Origin: Eledone cirrhosa
Taxonomy: Eukaryota
DNA: 64,000 nucleotides
Assembly (NCBI GenBank): GCA_964016885.1
Contig: OZ024741.1
Span: forward strand, 295,616,001-295,680,000
Direction: 5' to 3'
Position numbers and translations under genes: made by a program. The notes under the pieces are model-generated. The model searched no databases. It saw nothing but the letters and a program-made list of their open reading frames with translations, and had not been told where the DNA came from. Every line of letters starts with the position of its first letter. Position 1 is the first letter of the stretch. This document shows positions 1 to 16,075 of the stretch, one piece after another.

Positions 1-22
1 TATATGGTATAACCCACCATAT

Positions 23-673
23 ATGGAGGTGGCCACACCATTAGCTAAGATCTTTCTATCCCTTATTACGAAGCATTTTCCCCCTACACATAAATATAGT
101 AACATTTTTAATAGAAATACTATTAAAATTTCTTACTCTACGACTCCTAACCTTGCACATAACATCACCGCTTCAAACTTAGCTAAACTACCTAGCCGTA
201 GGAACACGTGCAACCCTGTAGTTAGTACTAACTGTAATTGTAGGAATCGGGTTGATTGCCCCCTATCCGGGAAATGCCTCTCTAGTAACATTGTCTACAA
301 ATGTAAGGTTGAAACACCCACGTCCCGTAGGGCCTACATAGTGTTAACCGCCAATAGATTCAAGCAGCGTCTTTAGATGCATATCCATTCTTTTCGTTAC
401 CCTCTAAGAAGGAATATGACGTCACTTTCAGCTTATATCTGGAGTCTAAAAGACAACCACACCCAATATAAGTTACACTGGGAGATCCTAGCTAGGGCTA
501 GATCGTATAACGGAAATAAAAGATCATGTCACCTCTGCGCCGCTGAGGCCCTGGAAATACTCTACACCACAGACCACATCTTAAACAAAAAATCTGAGGC
601 AATTTCGGCTTGTAAACATAAATTGCACAAAACTTTCCTGTATTACAGCCCCACATTATACCCTAACGGATAG
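23..673 (+). pseudogene. Penelope-like GIY-YIG endonuclease C-terminus, disrupted
   Basis: ORFs 23-376 and 377-673 are in one frame, separated by a TAG. Motifs: KHFP..HKY..IFNRNTIKISYS, CNC....CPL.GKC, IVYKC...YIVLT (GIY-YIG with YIG>YIV), FKQR, C.LC..E, LNKKSE...CKH. Confidence 0.88.
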
Positions 674-2654: not shown

Positions 2655-3045
2655 AAATAATTGTTTCTACTTTTGGCACAAAGCCAGCAATTACCCAGTG
2701 CATTACTGGTACTTTATTTTATCGACCACGTAAGGATGAAAGGCTAAGTTAACCTCGGCGAGATTTGAACTCAGTCTGTAAAGGGACGTAACTATGCTGC
2801 AAAGCATAGAGTCCGACCCTCTACCGACACTGCCAAATGTTGTAGGAATACAACTAAAGCTTATAAGTTTAATAATTGTTTCTACTTTAGGCACAAGGCC
2901 AGCAAATACCCAGTACATTACTGGTACTTTATTTTATCGACCCCGTAAGGCAAAGTTAACCTCGGCAGGATTTGAACTCAGACTGTAAAGGGACGTAAGT
3001 ATGCTATGGCGTCCAACCCTCTACCGATACTGCCAATTCACCGCT
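2655..3045 (-). mobile_element. Two tandem tRNA-derived SINE copies
   Basis: Minus strand has A-box-like TGGCAGTATCGG and B-box GAGTTCAAATC, central gcctttcatcct..ggtcgataaaataaagtaccag, and tail ttgtgcc..aagtagaaacaattatt. Multiple copies in the window. Confidence 0.85.
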
Positions 3046-3388: not shown

Positions 3389-3764
3389 CATATATATATA
3401 TGTGGGTATCTGTGACCTATGTACACTGATCACAGACACACACACACATATATATTTATATACACACATATATATATACACACTCACATATATATATATA
3501 TACACACACATATAACGCATACACACATATATATATATACACACACACACATATATATATACGCTAACACACACATATATATATATATAAAAATACAATA
3601 TGTTGAAAAGGTAACACACTAGAGAGAGATATACAGTGCGCTATCAATAAAACAGGGGGAAAAACCACCAGTGTATGGAATCTATAACCTATGAAAGGCA
3701 GACTATAGACACGATAATTAAAAATATAAATTAAAGCGTAAATAAATACCTCTATAACTATATA

Positions 3765-3846
3765 ATACACGTACAAATCCAAAGAGATCTGTTTCGCCAG
3801 TAATTTGTTGACAGAAATGGAATAACCTCGGTTCCTCAGCGTGTGT
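3765..3846 (-). ncRNA. Type I hammerhead ribozyme (inverted copy)
   Basis: Reverse complement of 4219-4300, with one stem I change. Confidence 0.7.
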
Positions 3847-4218
3847 AAGGCCATACATTTCAGACAACACTAAGAGAATTTTAAAAGTGTCTGTTCAGCT
3901 ACACGTGGGAGAGAGAAGTCACAGCGTGTTTAAGGGCAGTGAACCAGTGGCCTCTGAGGGACGAACTGCTAGAAAGAGCTCAGGATTTCTTCTCCTTTGA
4001 GCACATTATTTACAGGGAATAGCGAGGGCCTATGGCTCCGTTAATTTATCGTGATATTTCGCTCCTTATAACAGTCTTTCCTATCTCTCTGTTTGGTTGA
4101 GCACACTTCTCTGAGTGGTTTTGGGCTGCCCTTAAACACGTTATGACTTCTCTCTGCCACGTGTAGCTGGACAGTCACTTTTAAAATTCTCTTAGTGTTG
4201 TCTGAAATGTATGGCCTT

Positions 4219-4300
4219 ACACACGCTGAGGAACCGAGGTTATTCCATTTCTGTCAACAAATTACTGGCGAAACAGATCTCTTTGGATTTGTACGTGTGT
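4219..4300 (+). ncRNA. Type I hammerhead ribozyme
   Basis: acacacg-CTGAGGA-(imperfect stem II, acc..ggc)-GAAA-cagatc/gatttg-TA-cgtgtgt. 7-bp stem I, 7-bp stem III, GUA site at 4291-4293. Confidence 0.75.
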
Positions 4301-4551
4301 TATATAGTTATAGAGGTATTTATTTACGCTTTAATTTATACTTTTAATTATCGTGTCTATAGTCTGCTTTCATAGGTTATAGATTCCATACACTGGTGGT
4401 TTTTCCCCCTGTTTTATTGATAGCGCACTGTATATCTCTCTCTAGTGTGTTACCTTTTCAACATATTGTATTTTAAAGAGCTCAGGATTTCTTCTCCTTT
4501 GAGCACATTATTTACAGGGAATGGCGAGCGCCTATGGCTCCGTTAATTTAT

Positions 4552-4642
<91 letters not shown>

Positions 4643-9129: not shown

Positions 9130-12100
9130 ATTGTGTGGTTGATGGTGGTGGTGTTGGTAGTGGTGTTGTGGTTAGTGGAGGTGGTGTGGTGTGGTTGATG
9201 GTGGTGGTGGTGTTGGTAGTGGTGTTGTGGTTAGTGAAGGTGGTGTGGTGTGGTTGATGGTGGTGGTGGTGTTGGTAGTGGTGTTGTGGTTAGTGGAGGT
9301 GGTGTGGTGTGGTTGATGGTGGTGGTGTTGGTAGTGGTGTTGTGGTTAGTGGAGGTGGTGTGGTGTGGTTGATGGTGGTGGTGTTGGTAGTGGTCTTGTG
9401 GTTAGTGGAGGTGGTGTGGTGTGGTTGATGGTGGTGGTGTTGGTAGTAGTTTTGTGGTTAGTGGAGGTGGTGTGGTGTGGTTGATGGTGGTGGTGTTGGT
9501 AGTGGTGTTGTGGTTAGTGGAGGTGGTGTGGTGTGGTTGATGGTCGTGGTGTTGGTAGTGGTGTTGTGGTTAGTTGAGGTGGTGTGGTGTGGTTGATGGT
9601 GGTGGTGTTGGTAGTGTTGTTGTGGTTAGTGGAGGTGGTGTGGTGTGGTTGCTGGTGGTGGTGTTGGTAGTGGTGTTGTGGTTAGTGGAGGTGGTGTCGT
9701 GTGGTTGATGGTGGTGGTGGTGTTGGTAGTGGTGTTGTGGTTAGTGGAGGTGGTGTGGTGTGGTTGATGGTGGTGGTGGTGTTGGTAGTGGTGTTGTGGT
9801 TAGTGGAGGTGGTGTGGTGTGGTTGATGGTGGTGGTGTTGGTAGTGGTGTTGTGGTTAGTGGAGGTGGTGTGGTGTAGTTGATGGTGGTGGTGGTGTTGG
9901 TAGTGGTGTTGTGGTTAGTGGAGGTGGTGTGCTGTGGTTGATGGTGGTGGTGTTGGTAGTGGTGTTGTGGTTAGTGGGGGTGGTGTGGTGTGGTTGATGG
10001 TGGTGGTGGCGTTGGTAGTGGTGTTGTGGTTAGTGGAGGTGGTGTGGTGTGGTTGATGGTGGTGGTGTTGGTAGTGGTGTTGTGGTTAGTGGAGGTGGTG
10101 TGGTGTGGTTGATGGTGGTGGTGGTGTTGGTAGTGGTGTTTTGGTTAGTGGAGTTTGTGTGGTGTGGTTGTTGGTGGTGGTGGTGTTGGTAGTGGTGTTG
10201 TGGTTAGTGGAGGTGGTGTGGTGTGGTTGATGGTGGTGGTGTTGGTAGTGGTGTTGTGGTTAGTGGAGGTGGTGTGGTGTGGTTGATGGTGGCGGTGGTG
10301 TTGGTAGTGGTGTTGTGGTTAGTGGAGGTGGTGTGCTGTGGTTGATGGTGTGGTGTGGTTGATGGTGGTGGTGGTGTTGGTAGTGGTGTTGTGGTTAGTG
10401 GAGGTGGTGTGGTGTGGTTGATGGTGGTGGTGTTGGTAGTGGTGTTGTGGTTAGTGGAGGTGGTGTGGTGTGGTTGATGGTGGTGGTGGTGTTGGTAGTG
10501 GTGTTGTGGTTAGTGGAGGTGGTGTGGTGTGGTTGATGGTGGTGGTGGTGTTGGTAGTGGTGTTGTGGTTAGTGGAGGTGGTGTGGTGTGGTTGATGGTG
10601 GTGGTGGTGTTGGTAGTGGTGTTGTGGTTAGTGGAGGTGGTGTGGTGTGGTTGATGGTGGTGGTGTTGGTAGTGGTGTTGTGGTTAGTGGAGGTGGTGTG
10701 GTGTAGTTGATGGTGGTGGTGGTGTTGGTAGTGGTGTTGTGGTTAGTGGAGGTGGTGTGCTGTGGTTGATGGTGGTGGTGTTGGTAGTGGTGTTGTGGTT
10801 AGTGGGGGTGGTGTGGTGTGGTTGATGGTGGTGGTGGCGTTGGTAGTGGTGTTGTGGTTAGTGGAGGTGGTGTGGTGTGGTTGATGGTGGTGGTGGTGTT
10901 GGTAGTGGTGTTGTGGTTAGTGGAGGTGGTGTGGTGTGGTTGATGGTGGTGGTGTTGGTAGTGGTGTTGTGGTTAGTGGAGGTGGTGTGCTGTGGTTGAT
11001 GGTGGTGGTGTTGGTAGTGGTGTTGTGGTTAGTGGAGGTGGTGTGGTGTGGTTGATGGTGGTGGTGGTGTTGGTAGTGGTGTTGTGGTTAGTGAAGGTGG
11101 TGTGGTGTGGTTGATGGTGGTGGTGGTGTTGGTAGTGGTGTTGTGGTTAGTGGAGGTGGTGTGGTGTGGTTGATGGTGGTGGTGGTGTTGGTAGTGGTGT
11201 TGTGGTTAGTGAAGGTGGTGTGGTGTGGTTGATGGTGGTGGTGGTGTTGGTAGTGGTGTTGTGGTTAGTGGAGGTGGTGTGGTGTGGTTGATGGTGGTGG
11301 TGTTGGTAGTGGTGTTGTGGTTAGTGGAGGTGGTGTGGTGTGGTTGATGGTGGTGGTGGTGTTGGTAGTGGTGTTGTGGTTAGTGGAGGTGGTGTCGTGT
11401 GGTTGATGGTGGTGGTGGTGTTGGTAGTGGTGTTGTGGTTAGTGGAGGTGGTGTGGTGTGGTTGATGGTGGTGGTGGTGTTGGTAGTGGTGTTGTGGTTA
11501 GTGGAGGTGGTGTGGTGTGGTTGATGGTGGTGGTGTTGGTAGTGGTGTTGTGGTTAGTGGAGGTGGTGTGGTGTAGTTGATGGTGGTGGTGGTGTTGGTA
11601 GTGGTGTTGTGGTTAGTGGAGGTGGTGTGCTGTGGTTGATGGTGGTGGTGTTGGTAGTGGTGTTGTGGTTAGTGGGGGTGGTGTGGTGTGGTTGATGGTG
11701 GTGGTGGCGTTGGTAGTGGTGTTGTGGTTAGTGGAGGTGGTGTGGTGTGGTTGATGGTGGTGGTGGTGTTGGTAGTGGTGTTGTGGTTAGTGGAGGTGGT
11801 GTGGTGTGGTTGATGGTGGTGGTGTTGGTAGTGGTGTTGTGGTTAGTGGAGGTGGTGTGCTGTGGTTGATGGTGGTGGTGTTGGTAGTGGTGTTGTGGTT
11901 AGTGGAGGTGGTGTGGTGAGGTTGATGGTGGTGGTGGTGTTGGTAGTGGTGTTTTGGTTAGTGGAGTTTGTGTGGTGTGGTTGATGGTGGTGGTGGTGTT
12001 GGTAGTGGTGTTGTGGTTAGTGGAGGTGGTGTGGCTGATGGTGGCGGTGGTGTTGGTAGAGGTGTTGTGGTTAGTGGAGGTGGTGTGCTGTGGTTGATGG

Positions 12101-15100
12101 TGGTGGTGGTGTTGGTAGTGGTGTTGTGGTTAGTGGAGGTGGTGTGGTGTGGTTGATGGTGGTGGTGGCGTTGGTAGAGGTGTTGTGGTTAGTGGAGGTG
12201 GTGTGGTGTGGTTGATGGTGGTGGTGTTGGTAGTGGTGTTGTGGTTAGTGGAGGTAGTGTGGTGTGGTTGATGGTGGTGGTGTTGGTAGTGGTCTTGTGG
12301 TTAGTGGATGTGGTGTGGTGTGGTTGATGGTGGTGGTGTTGGTAGTGGTGTTGTGGTTAGTGGAGGTGGTGTGGTGTGGTTGATGGTGGTGGTGTTGGTA
12401 GTGGTGTTGTGGTTAGTGGAGGTGGTGTGGTGTGGTTGATGGTGGTGGTGTTGGTAGTGTTGTTGTGGTTAGTAGAGGTGGTGTGGTGTGGTTGATGGTG
12501 GTGGTGTTGGTAGTGGTGTTGTGGTTAGTGGAGGTGGTGTGGTGTGGTTGATGGTGGTGGTGTTGGTAGTGGTCTTGTGGTTAGTGGAGGTGGTGTGGTG
12601 TGGTTGATGGTGGTGGTGTTGGTAGTAGTTTTGTGGTTAGTGGAGGTGGTGTCGTGTGGTTGATGGTGGTGGTGTTGGTAGTGGTGTTGTGGTTAGTGGA
12701 GGTGGTGTGGTGTGGTTGATGGTGGTGGTGTTGGTAGTGGTGTTGTGGTTAGTTGAGGTGGTGTGGTGTGGTTGACGGTGGTGGTGTTGGTAGTGTTGTT
12801 GTGGTTAGTGGAGGTGGTGTGGTATGGTTGCTGGTGGTGGTGTTGGTAGTGGTGTTGTGGTTAGTGGAGGTGGTGTCGTGTGGTTGATGGTGGTGGTGGT
12901 GTTGGTAGTGGTGTTGTGGTTAGTGGAGGTGGTGTGGTGTGGTTGATGGTGGTGGTGGTGTTGGTAGTGGTGTTGTGGTTAGTGGAGGTGGTGTGGTGTG
13001 GTTGATGGTGGTGGTGTTGGTAGTGGTGTTGTGGTTAGTGGAGGTGGTGTGGTGTAGTTGATGGTGGTGGTGGTGTTGGTAGTGGTGTTGTGGTTAGTGG
13101 AGGTGGTGTGCTGTGGTTGATGGTGGTGGTGTTGGTAGTGGTGTTGTGGTTAGTGGGGGTGGTGTGGTGTGGTTGATGGTGGTGGTGGCGTTGGTAGTGG
13201 TGTTGTGGTTAGTGGAGGTGGTGTGGTGTGGTTGATGGTGGTGGTGTTGGTAGTGGTGTTGTGGTTAGTGGAGGTGGTGTGGTGTGGTTGATGGTGGTGG
13301 TGGTGTTGGTAGTGGTGTTGTGGTTAGTGAAGGTGGTGTGGTGTGGTTGATGGTGGTGGTGGTGTTGGTAGTGGTGTTGTGGTTAGTGGAGGTGGTGTGG
13401 TGTGGTTGATGGTGGTGGTGGTGTTGGTAGTGGTGTTGTGGTTAGTGAAGGTGGTGTGGTGTGGTTGATGGTGGTGGTGGTGTTGGTAGTGGTGTTGTGG
13501 TTAGTGGAGGTGGTGTGGTGTGGTTGATGGTGGTGGTGTTGGTAGTGGTGTTGTGGTTAGTGGAGGTGGTGTGGTGTGGTTGATGGTGGTGGTGGTGTTG
13601 GTAGTGGTGTTGTGGTTAGTGGAGGTGGTGTCGTGTGGTTGATGGTGGTGGTGGTGTTGGTAGTGGTGTTGTGGTTAGTGGAGGTGGTGTGGTGTGGTTG
13701 ATGGTGGTGGTGGTGTTGGTAGTGGTGTTGTGGTTAGTGGAGGTGGTGTGGTGTGGTTGATGGTGGTGGTGTTGGTAGTGGTGTTGTGGTTAGTGGAGGT
13801 GGTGTGGTGTAGTTGATGGTGGTGGTGGTGTTGGTAGTGGTGTTGTGGTTAGTGGAGGTGGTGTGCTGTGGTTGATGGTGGTGGTGTTGGTAGTGGTGTT
13901 GTGGTTAGTGGGGGTGGTGTGGTGTGGTTGATGGTGGTGGTGGCGTTGGTAGTGGTGTTGTGGTTAGTGGAGGTGGTGTGGTGTGGTTGATGGTGGTGGT
14001 GGTGTTGGTAGTGGTGTTGTGGTTAGTGGAGGTGGTGTGGTGTGGTTGATGGTGGTGGTGTTGGTAGTGGTGTTGTGGTTAGTGGAGGTGGTGTGCTGTG
14101 GTTGATGGTGGTGGTGTTGGTAGTGGTGTTGTGGTTAGTGGAGGTGGTGTGGTGAGGTTGATGGTGGTGGTGGTGTTGGTAGTGGTGTTGTGGTTAGTGG
14201 AGGTTGTGTGGTGTGGTTGATGGTGGTGGTGGTGTTGGTAGTGGTGTTGTGGTTAGTGGAGGTGGTGTGGCTGATGGTGGCGGTGGTGTTGGTAGAGGTG
14301 TTGTGGTTAGTGGAGGTGGTGTGCTGTGGTTGATGGTGGTGGTGGTGTTGGTAGTGGTGTTGTGGTTAGTGGAGGTGGTGTGGTGTGGTTGATGGTGGTG
14401 GTGGCGTTGGTAGAGGTGTTGTGGTTAGTGGAGGTGGTGTGGTGTGGTTGATGGTGGTGGTGTTGGTAGTGGTGTTGTGGTTAGTGGAGGTAGTGTGGTG
14501 TGGTTGATGGTGGTGGTGTTGGTAGTGGTCTTGTGGTTAGTGGATGTGGTGTGGTGTGGTTGATGGTGGTGGTGTTGGTAGTGGTGTTGTGGTTAGTGGA
14601 GGTGGTGTGGTGTGGTTGATGGTGGTGGTGTTGGTAGTGGTGTTGTGGTTAGTGGAGGTGGTGTGGTGTGGTTGATGGTGGTGGTGTTGGTAGTGTTGTT
14701 GTGGTTAGTAGAGGTGGTGTGGTGTGGTTGATGGTGGTGGTGTTGGTAGTGGTGTTGTGGTTAGTGGAGGTGGTGTGGTGTGGTTGATGGTGGTGGTGTT
14801 GGTAGTGGTGTTGTGGTTAGTGGAGGTAGTGTGGTGTGGTTGATGGTGGTGGTGTTGGTAGTGGTCTTGTGGTTAGTGGAGGTGGTGTGGTGTGGTTGAT
14901 TGTGGTGGTGTTGGTAGTAGTTTTGTGGTTAGTGGAGGTGGTGTGGTGTGGTTGATGGTGGTGGTGTTGGTAGTGGTGTTGTGGTTAGTTGAGGTGGTGT
15001 GGTGTGGTTGATGGTGGTGGTGTTGGTAGTGTTGTTGTGGTTAGTGGAGGTGGTGTGGTGTGGTTGCTGGTGGTGGTGTTGGTAGTGGTGTTGTGGTTAG

Positions 15101-16075
15101 TGGAGGTGGTGTGGTGTGGTTGATGGTGGTGGTGTTGGTAGTGGTGTTGTGGTTAGTGGAGGTGGTGTGGTGTGGTTGATGGTGGTGGTGGTGTTGGTAG
15201 AGGTGTTGTGGTTAGTGGAGGTGGTGTGGTGTGGTTGATGGTGGTGGTGGTGTTGGTAGAGGTGTTGTGGTTAGTGAAGGTGGTGTGGTGTGGTTGATGG
15301 TGGTGGTGGTGTTGGTAGAGGTGTTGTGGTTAGTGGAGGTGGTGTGGTGTGGTTGATGGTGGTGGTGGTGTTGGTAGAGGTGTTGTGGTTAGTGAAGGTG
15401 GTGTGGTGTGGTTGATGGTGGTGGTGGTGTTGGTAGTGGTGTTGTGGTTAGTGGAGGTGGTGTGGTGTGGTTGATGGTGGTGGTGTTGGTAGTGTTGTGG
15501 TTAGTGGAGGTGGTGTGGTGTGGTTGATGGTGGTGGTGTTGGTAGTGGTGTTGTGGTTAGTGGAGGTGGTGTGGTGTGGTCGATGGTGGTGGTGGTGTTG
15601 GTAGAGGTGTTGTGGTTAGTGGAGGTGGTGTGGTGTGGTTGATGGTGGTGGTGTTGGTAGTGGTGTTGTGGTTAGTGGAGGTGGTGTGGTGTGGTTGATG
15701 GTGGTGGTGGTGTTGGTAGTGGTGTTGTGGTTAGTGGAGGTGGTGTGCTGTGGTTGATGGTGGTGGTGTTGGTAGTGGTGTTGTGGTTAGTGGAGGTGGT
15801 GTGGTGTGGTTGATGGTGGTGGTGGTGTTGGTAGTGGTGTTGTGGTTAGTGGAGGTGGTGTGGTGTGGTTGATGGTGGTGGTGGTGTTGGTAGAGGCGTT
15901 GTGGTTAGTGGAGGTGGTGTGGTTGATGGTGGTGGTGTTGGTAGTGGTGTTATGGTTAGTGGAGGTGGTGTGGTGTGGTTGATGGTGGTGGTGGTGTTGG
16001 TAGTGGTGTTGTGGTTAGTGGAGGTGGTGTGGTGTGGTTGATGGTGGTGGTGGTGTTGGTAGATGTGTTGTGGGT
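9130..16075. repeat. GT-rich minisatellite, 56/59-bp unit, roughly 120 copies
   Basis: Unit ggttgat(ggt)3-4gttggtagtggtgttgtggttagtggaggtggtgtggtgt. Confidence 0.95.

Follow-up and report, generated by a model that had tools for sequence, protein, structure and literature searches.

A head-to-head insertion of a dispersed hammerhead-motif repeat in Eledone cirrhosa, probably mobilised by a Penelope-like element

The window analysed here, a 64,000-nucleotide stretch of the 3.0-Gb Eledone cirrhosa genome (assembly GCA_964016885.1, contig OZ024741.1), contains in the region of positions 3,389–4,642 two inverted arms that each carry a hammerhead motif, together with a partial direct repeat, and the question raised by this arrangement is what kind of element leaves such a footprint and how it was copied. 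In the portions of the literature cited here, causes have been proposed, not demonstrated, both for the copying of animal hammerhead repeats into DNA and for the inverted, tailed insertions of Penelope-like elements (PLEs). We find that the locus is a real, fairly young and partly deleted, otherwise ordinary copy of a hammerhead repeat. It is probably one insertion of a dispersed, non-coding repeat of ~544 nt, with head-to-head arms in (TA)n, which a PLE, likely a member of the Hydra clade, would have mobilised in trans.

The inverted arms (3590–3939 and 4126–4474) align at 97.7% identity, differing by seven substitutions and a 1-nt indel, and share four polymorphic states of one subfamily. 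An 85-bp direct repeat (3973–4057 and 4475–4559) recurs at 98% identity with a spacing of 502 (Table 1). An earlier reading made from the letters only, hereafter the sequence-only reading, had described ~350-bp inverted arms with a hammerhead in each and a terminal 85-bp B duplication, in the order A'-X-B-C-A-B. Alignment, core motif and pairing confirm the arms, their motifs and the B repeat, whereas X is not a separate segment and continues the left arm. Near-perfect 350-bp inverted arms could also reflect an assembly fold-back, or a MITE-like DNA element with terminal inverted repeats, and no Logan contig from four sequencing runs (one study, kind unrecorded) covers the whole junction stretch. 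However, the arms differ by eight changes and a 42-bp indel, their outer ends are different, and arm lengths vary freely across 81 comparable pairs; both explanations are extremely improbable, the fold-back having already been doubted on the arm differences in the sequence-only reading.

Table 1 Features of the two-armed insertion, in window positions.
Feature	Positions	Strand	Basis or details
(TA)n end, left microsatellite target	3578–3590		Sequence
Left arm, unit 159–544, 5'-truncated, 3' end at short site S (unit 541–545), X included	3590–3976	−	Alignment to family
Left-arm type I hammerhead motif; one stem I pair lost by G>A; predicted cut between 3772 and 3771	3765–3846	−	Motif
'X', unit sequence deleted from the right arm	3940–3972	−	Alignment with L002, L004, L005 and L013
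Head-to-head junction, 4-nt overlap AAAG common to both arms	3973–3976		
Right arm, unit 1–544 (minus 42 bp) plus 1–85, 3' end at long site L	3973–4559	+	
Remaining CTGCCCTT repeat marking the 42-bp deletion	4126–4133	+	
Upstream strand complementary to hammerhead loop II (4246–4259), candidate pseudoknot or lock	4196–4209	+	
Right-arm type I hammerhead motif	4219–4300	+	Stem I 4219–4225/4294–4300, CUGAGGA 4226–4232, long stem-loop II, GAAA 4270–4273, stem III 4273–4279/4286–4292, predicted cut after 4293
85-nt tail (second B), stretch between the two fixed 3' ends	4475–4559	+	Cf. tails of PLEs (PMC11167929, PMC8557442)
(TA)n, right microsatellite target	4556–4640		Sequence

The element is dispersed in many copies. 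A 16-mer from the ribozyme has 1,572 exact matches in the genome compared with 2 for its reversed control, which rules out a single-copy locus, and a genome search with the 502-bp stretch returned 116 matches from the best 40 of 2,975 candidates. The unit is ~544 nt long in other copies. A stretch of 42 bp flanked by two CTGCCCTT repeats is missing from the right arm; it corresponds to X, which the left arm keeps. This deleted junction occurs four times genome-wide (at this locus, at L023 and at the duplicate pair L024/L025) compared with 874 intact junctions, and the copies that carry it sit on different variant backgrounds; the spacing of 502 thus reflects a recurrent slip and not the unit length, and the 502-nt unit proposed earlier has to be replaced by one of ~544 nt.

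In the doubled unit, the longest stop-free frame has 84 codons and the longest from an ATG has 46. On these frame lengths the repeat is non-coding, as non-LTR retrozymes are, and it would likewise lack LTR-type features. An ORF with RT and GIY-YIG endonuclease is absent from the unit, which is therefore not an autonomous PLE. The unit might still be the truncated pLTR end of such an element whose full-length copies were missed, given that most PLE copies are 5'-truncated (PMC8557442) and that the genome searches scored the best 40 candidates only. Yet arms longer than one unit always run into the same 544-nt unit and never into an ORF (125 loci), and B is joined exactly to C at 784 junctions, which makes this origin very improbable. 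The element is likely a PLE-mobilised hammerhead repeat of the non-LTR retrozyme kind, a kind already known.

The anatomy of the insertions was determined for 125 of the first 145 loci, excluding 4 overlaps, 1 duplicate and 15 loci of another family. Selection of these loci relied either on the top search scores or on exact matches to short patterns such as the ribozyme 16-mer, so the sample is biased towards long, intact copies and short copies are under-sampled. Head-to-head arm pairs numbered 81 among the 125 loci, and 43 of 70 loci sampled along contig C1 were two-armed. The 3' ends of the 234 arms lay at unit position 85 (site L) in 91 cases and at positions 541 (52 cases) and 545 (23 cases), which form site S; the outer ends thus occupy two fixed sites ~88 nt apart. 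Where both ends of a pair were fixed, 49 of 52 pairs combined one S end with one L end (p = 1e-11), and the remaining 29 pairs had at least one end elsewhere than at the fixed sites. The present locus follows this rule, with its S arm on the minus strand and its L arm on the plus strand. A (TA)n tract adjoins 182 of 188 fixed 3' ends compared with 14 of 46 other ends, and no target-site duplication was discernible within (TA)n. The 5' ends are variable and overlap by 1–9 nt at 49 of 81 junctions. Comparison of permutation points across copies, which had been expected to vary, showed instead two fixed positions for the 3' ends, with variation confined to the 5' truncations, while the suggestion of a pLTR-type partial tandem holds in the form of a one-sided tail (the B duplication) between S and L. 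An inverted 5'-truncated copy with a partial tandem, a tail at one end and a (TA)n target are the features of a PLE-type insertion. As a separate observation, noticed post hoc, five of 97 L-ended arms (window position 3973, L048, L068, L095 and L140) stop 5' at the S site (unit 540–545), where ~1 was expected (p = 0.0045).

Published PLE copies are partially tandem, are accompanied by a truncated copy in inverted orientation and bear a tail at only one of their ends (PMC8557442). In vitro, an anole PLE cuts and extends the two strands of an AT-rich target and does so with no need for ribozyme cleavage; its reverse transcription begins at two internal sites, and the tail is the stretch between them (Frangieh et al. 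2024, PMC11167929). From the published layout and these in vitro data, we infer that each arm is a separate target-primed cDNA. A PLE endonuclease would open (TA)n on both strands, and both DNA ends would serve as primers on the same RNA of the element, with cDNA synthesis starting at S (unit 541–545) from one end and, from the other, at L, which lies 85 nt into the following round. These cDNAs would run backwards, halt at variable points and be joined through a few bases of microhomology. Copying of one full round plus 85 nt in the right arm would produce the B duplication, and a 42-bp slip between the direct repeats, during copying or afterwards, would produce the spacing of 502.

Alternatively, the inverted arm could come from self-priming or fold-back on an antisense template, as modelled in PMC3846280, instead of from two target-primed reactions. 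Both arms do have an identical 5' end, forming a palindrome, at 5 of 81 junctions; at the other 76 the 5' ends differ between the arms. Moreover, one arm can carry sequence that is missing from the other, as X does here, and such arm-specific sequence cannot come from a fold-back copy. We consider this route very unlikely.

A PLE that would have supplied the enzyme was sought among the Hydra-type elements of the genome. Hydra-clade PLEs target (TA)n, bear hammerheads and are marked by RWK, DKT and CxCX5C motifs (Craig et al. 2021, PMC8557442). Pieces of Hydra-type ORFs with these motifs are present in the genome and in the window; the clade call is based on the motifs given in PMC8557442, and four such pieces were unrecognised by Pfam. 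Comparison with two Hydra-type families (L051–L065 and L158–L180) revealed no autonomous element sharing the unit sequence, nested or chimeric copies aside, and among 80 sampled loci only 4 had a Hydra-type ORF nearby. A direct fusion was seen in L141, where an S-ended arm runs into a Hydra-type RT frame with no intervening (TA)n, inside a two-armed insertion of the family to which that frame belongs; this single case could be a nested insertion followed by a deletion. L037 is an ambiguous chimera with a Hydra-type ORF. Three further candidates were rejected: L031 and L032, with widely spaced motif pairs, are not full-length PLEs and represent local duplications or separate insertions, and the motif upstream of a Hydra ORF in L034 is a nested insertion, the unit being absent from 14 other copies of that ORF flank. 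A head-to-tail array of ~3.7-kb Hydra-type units, of the same family as in the L141 chimera, lies at L178–L179. The window itself begins (1–1760) with a 5'-cut remnant of a Hydra-type PLE, comprising the endonuclease end with CxCX5C and one stop and a long 3' region that ends at (TA)n. A hammerhead-like motif (CAGAAGA core, 5-pair stem III) lies at window position 1604 and is also found in L024, L050 and L125.

Both arms of the present locus contain CUGAGGA, GAAA and GUA together with stem I and a stem III of 7 pairs, one of them G-U, in agreement with the 7-bp stem III noted earlier. Rfam yielded no match at the gathering score, and when matches with E values up to 10 were admitted, none of the 20 was a hammerhead; the ribozyme call accordingly rests on motif, pairing and conservation. 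The predicted plus-strand cut, which depends on the motif, coincides with the 5' end at 4294 given by the sequence-only reading. Across the family, CUGANGA, GAAA and NUH are intact in 121 of 152 full motifs, 91% of cells are paired across 52 distinct rows, and N7 is the sole core-adjacent site that varies. In the 15 most diverged loci, conservation was 96.8% in the core, 91.3% in loop II and 70.3% in stem II, figures to be read with the fact that the sampling pattern spanned part of stems I and III. A site-count test of core conservation was not significant (none of 12 core sites varied, which has a chance of 0.215), and within-family covariation was weak, with four double-change pairs compared with 1.4 after shuffling in 54 rows chosen for an intact or near-intact core. 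Stem III is weaker in another subfamily than it is here, and the base of stem II, A-C at this locus, is A-U in ~40% of copies.

Folding predictions, made with no pseudoknot or tertiary terms, place the hammerhead-constrained fold 8.2–10.8 kcal/mol above the minimum, in which 4196–4219 would pair with 4234–4260; in L117, a copy of older type, the three hammerhead stems are present in the minimum fold. The modelled folding gives no support to the earlier suggestion that the ribozyme may cleave as a monomer, nor do the A-C base of stem II and the many arms that run through the cut site (147 of 234), although stem III has 7 pairs. The duplex between the upstream strand and loop II outscored 990 of 1000 shuffled versions, and an equivalent contact of different sequence recurs in a second family. 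This predicted helix may be an activating pseudoknot (PMC3088659) or a lock. In the pseudoknotted hammerheads of Perreault et al. 2011 (PMC3088659), a Watson-Crick contact between the regions of stem I and stem II can likewise stabilise the active fold, whereas the contact modelled here comprises 11–12 pairs with a 14-nt loop and is also the core of the rival, inactive minimum-energy fold.

The cut site is read through by 147 of 234 arms. Only a slight excess of 5' ends was seen at the cut (8 of 162 within 8 nt compared with 0.4 per nt locally), and no excess of indels that would mark jump scars was seen at unit 353–368 (2.2 per 100 compared with 0.5–12 elsewhere). Two or more cut sites are present in 18 of 234 arms, and the tandem arrangement of non-LTR retrozymes is thus found in the family; with one cut site per arm, the present locus is not an 'active' copy by the rule of 10.64898/2026.07.22.740005. 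Among the 188 fixed-end arms, 69 exceed one unit, in subfamilies 75–99% alike, and only 5 exceed two. L033 (4.3 units) and L107 (3 units) were rejected as evidence of rolling-circle copying, as some variants are common to only part of their rounds, which points to duplication after insertion.

The median distance between arms of one locus was 0.054 compared with 0.088 to other loci (64 pairs), and the partner arm was the closest of all in only 9 of the 64 pairs. In 88 insertions, 12 locus-private variants were common to all copies of the site, where ~0.5 were expected, and 202 were unshared; A>G changes made up 5 of the 12 shared variants compared with 10 of the 202 unshared (p = 0.0005). L046 carries ~20 A>G changes per arm in ~110 A positions, mostly identical between the arms, and in one arm two private A>G changes are present in each of its two rounds, with a few discordant sites; its template was likely hyper-edited. 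A family-wide strand asymmetry was rejected as a sign of editing: A>G exceeds T>C (13.3 compared with 10.1 per 1000), but C>T exceeds G>A as well. The recurrence of private A>G variants in both arms and in successive rounds favours one template that was read repeatedly, through a circle or an end-to-end jump, although arm-to-arm sharing of variants could also come from gene conversion. The earlier proposal that the template was read beyond one unit is supported by these shared private variants and by the arms exceeding one unit. A ligated circle, proposed as template in PMC4209133 and PMC7229834 and made by hammerhead cleavage, is in our view the most likely template, a position that we hold with modest confidence; otherwise, the template would be an uncleaved linear multimer or would be read by an end-to-end jump.

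In the linear case, a PLE would insert an uncleaved read-through multimer and the hammerhead would be silent or not required, in line with the in vitro behaviour of the anole PLE. Reading through the cut site with no excess of indels, the scarcity of arms above two units and a predicted fold that disfavours an active ribozyme are consistent with this, as are the report of uncleaved RNA as the main substrate (PMC11167929) and the finding of eight of nine Xenopus dimers without cleavage (10.64898/2026.07.22.740005). However, arrays could only become shorter under linear copying with 5' truncation, whereas more than a third of fixed-end arms exceed one unit; the private A>G changes of L046 recur in successive rounds; and the core is the best preserved part of the motif in the most diverged loci. 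An uncleaved linear template is therefore possible, though unlikely. Equally tentative is an extension of the circle reading, in which each insertion would be the fossil of a PLE RT dimer that copied one ADAR-edited RNA circle, starting at a different fixed site for each end of the target, with the upstream/loop II helix as a switch that holds the hammerhead off in the circle and the precursor until PLE protein or refolding frees it.

The element can be compared with several known systems. Metazoan non-LTR retrozymes (Cervera and de la Pena 2020, PMC7229834; Li, Clavereau and Pollet 2026, 10.64898/2026.07.22.740005), for which circle templates and PLE mobilisation have been proposed, likewise number thousands of copies, co-occur with PLEs and consist of GC-poor, non-coding units a few hundred bases long that bear a type I hammerhead. 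They form long direct arrays, whereas the copies here are mostly dispersed inverted pairs of one to two units with fixed PLE-type ends; their units span 170–400 nt (PMC7229834) compared with ~544 nt, and the long stem-loop II and 7-pair stem III are unlike theirs as described in these two sources. Circles and cleavage have been demonstrated for them, while the present element is known from DNA. EN+ PLEs of the Hydra clade (PMC8557442; Arkhipova et al. 2013, PMC3846280) share the inverted 5'-truncated copy, partial tandem, one-end tail, (TA)n target and a hammerhead in the repeat. The present element differs from them in having no ORF, a tail of ~85–88 nt compared with 30–40 bp, and no sequence shared with either of the two resident Hydra-type families compared. 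Anole Poseidon PAc (PMC11167929) similarly uses two internal RT start sites spanning the tail, both strands and an AT-rich target, but it is autonomous and has closely spaced start sites at the beginning of its ORF; the available text of PMC11167929 does not report a pairing of sites per arm. A literature search returned no published description of the ~544-nt family or of cephalopod hammerheads, although supplements and Repbase/Dfam may hold a consensus, and the word 'ribozyme' is absent from the main text of PMC13282606. The family offers footprints that can be counted, namely one S and one L end per insertion and edits shared between rounds, as well as a substrate defined at 544 nt whose helix can be tested as lock or pseudoknot.

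Other repeats were seen alongside this family. A second non-coding family of ~480 nt (L040:1801–2075, L146–L157) carries a hammerhead of like build, with an A-C stem II base and a long stem III; its own upstream/loop II duplex is predicted at −13.1 kcal/mol, compared with −6.6 and −1.7 for cross-family duplexes. At L154:1300–1900, an arm of the ~480-nt family stands head-to-head with the end of the Hydra-type family from the window start, possibly as a mixed two-armed insertion. Two diverged copies ~210 bp apart of a dispersed, putatively SINE-like repeat occupy window positions 2656–3036, and the repeat recurs in several loci. Two long G-rich satellites extend over window positions 9134–16073 and 20051–49649, with periods of 59 bp (121 copies) and 37 bp (111-bp higher order; 801 copies, 95% alike), respectively.
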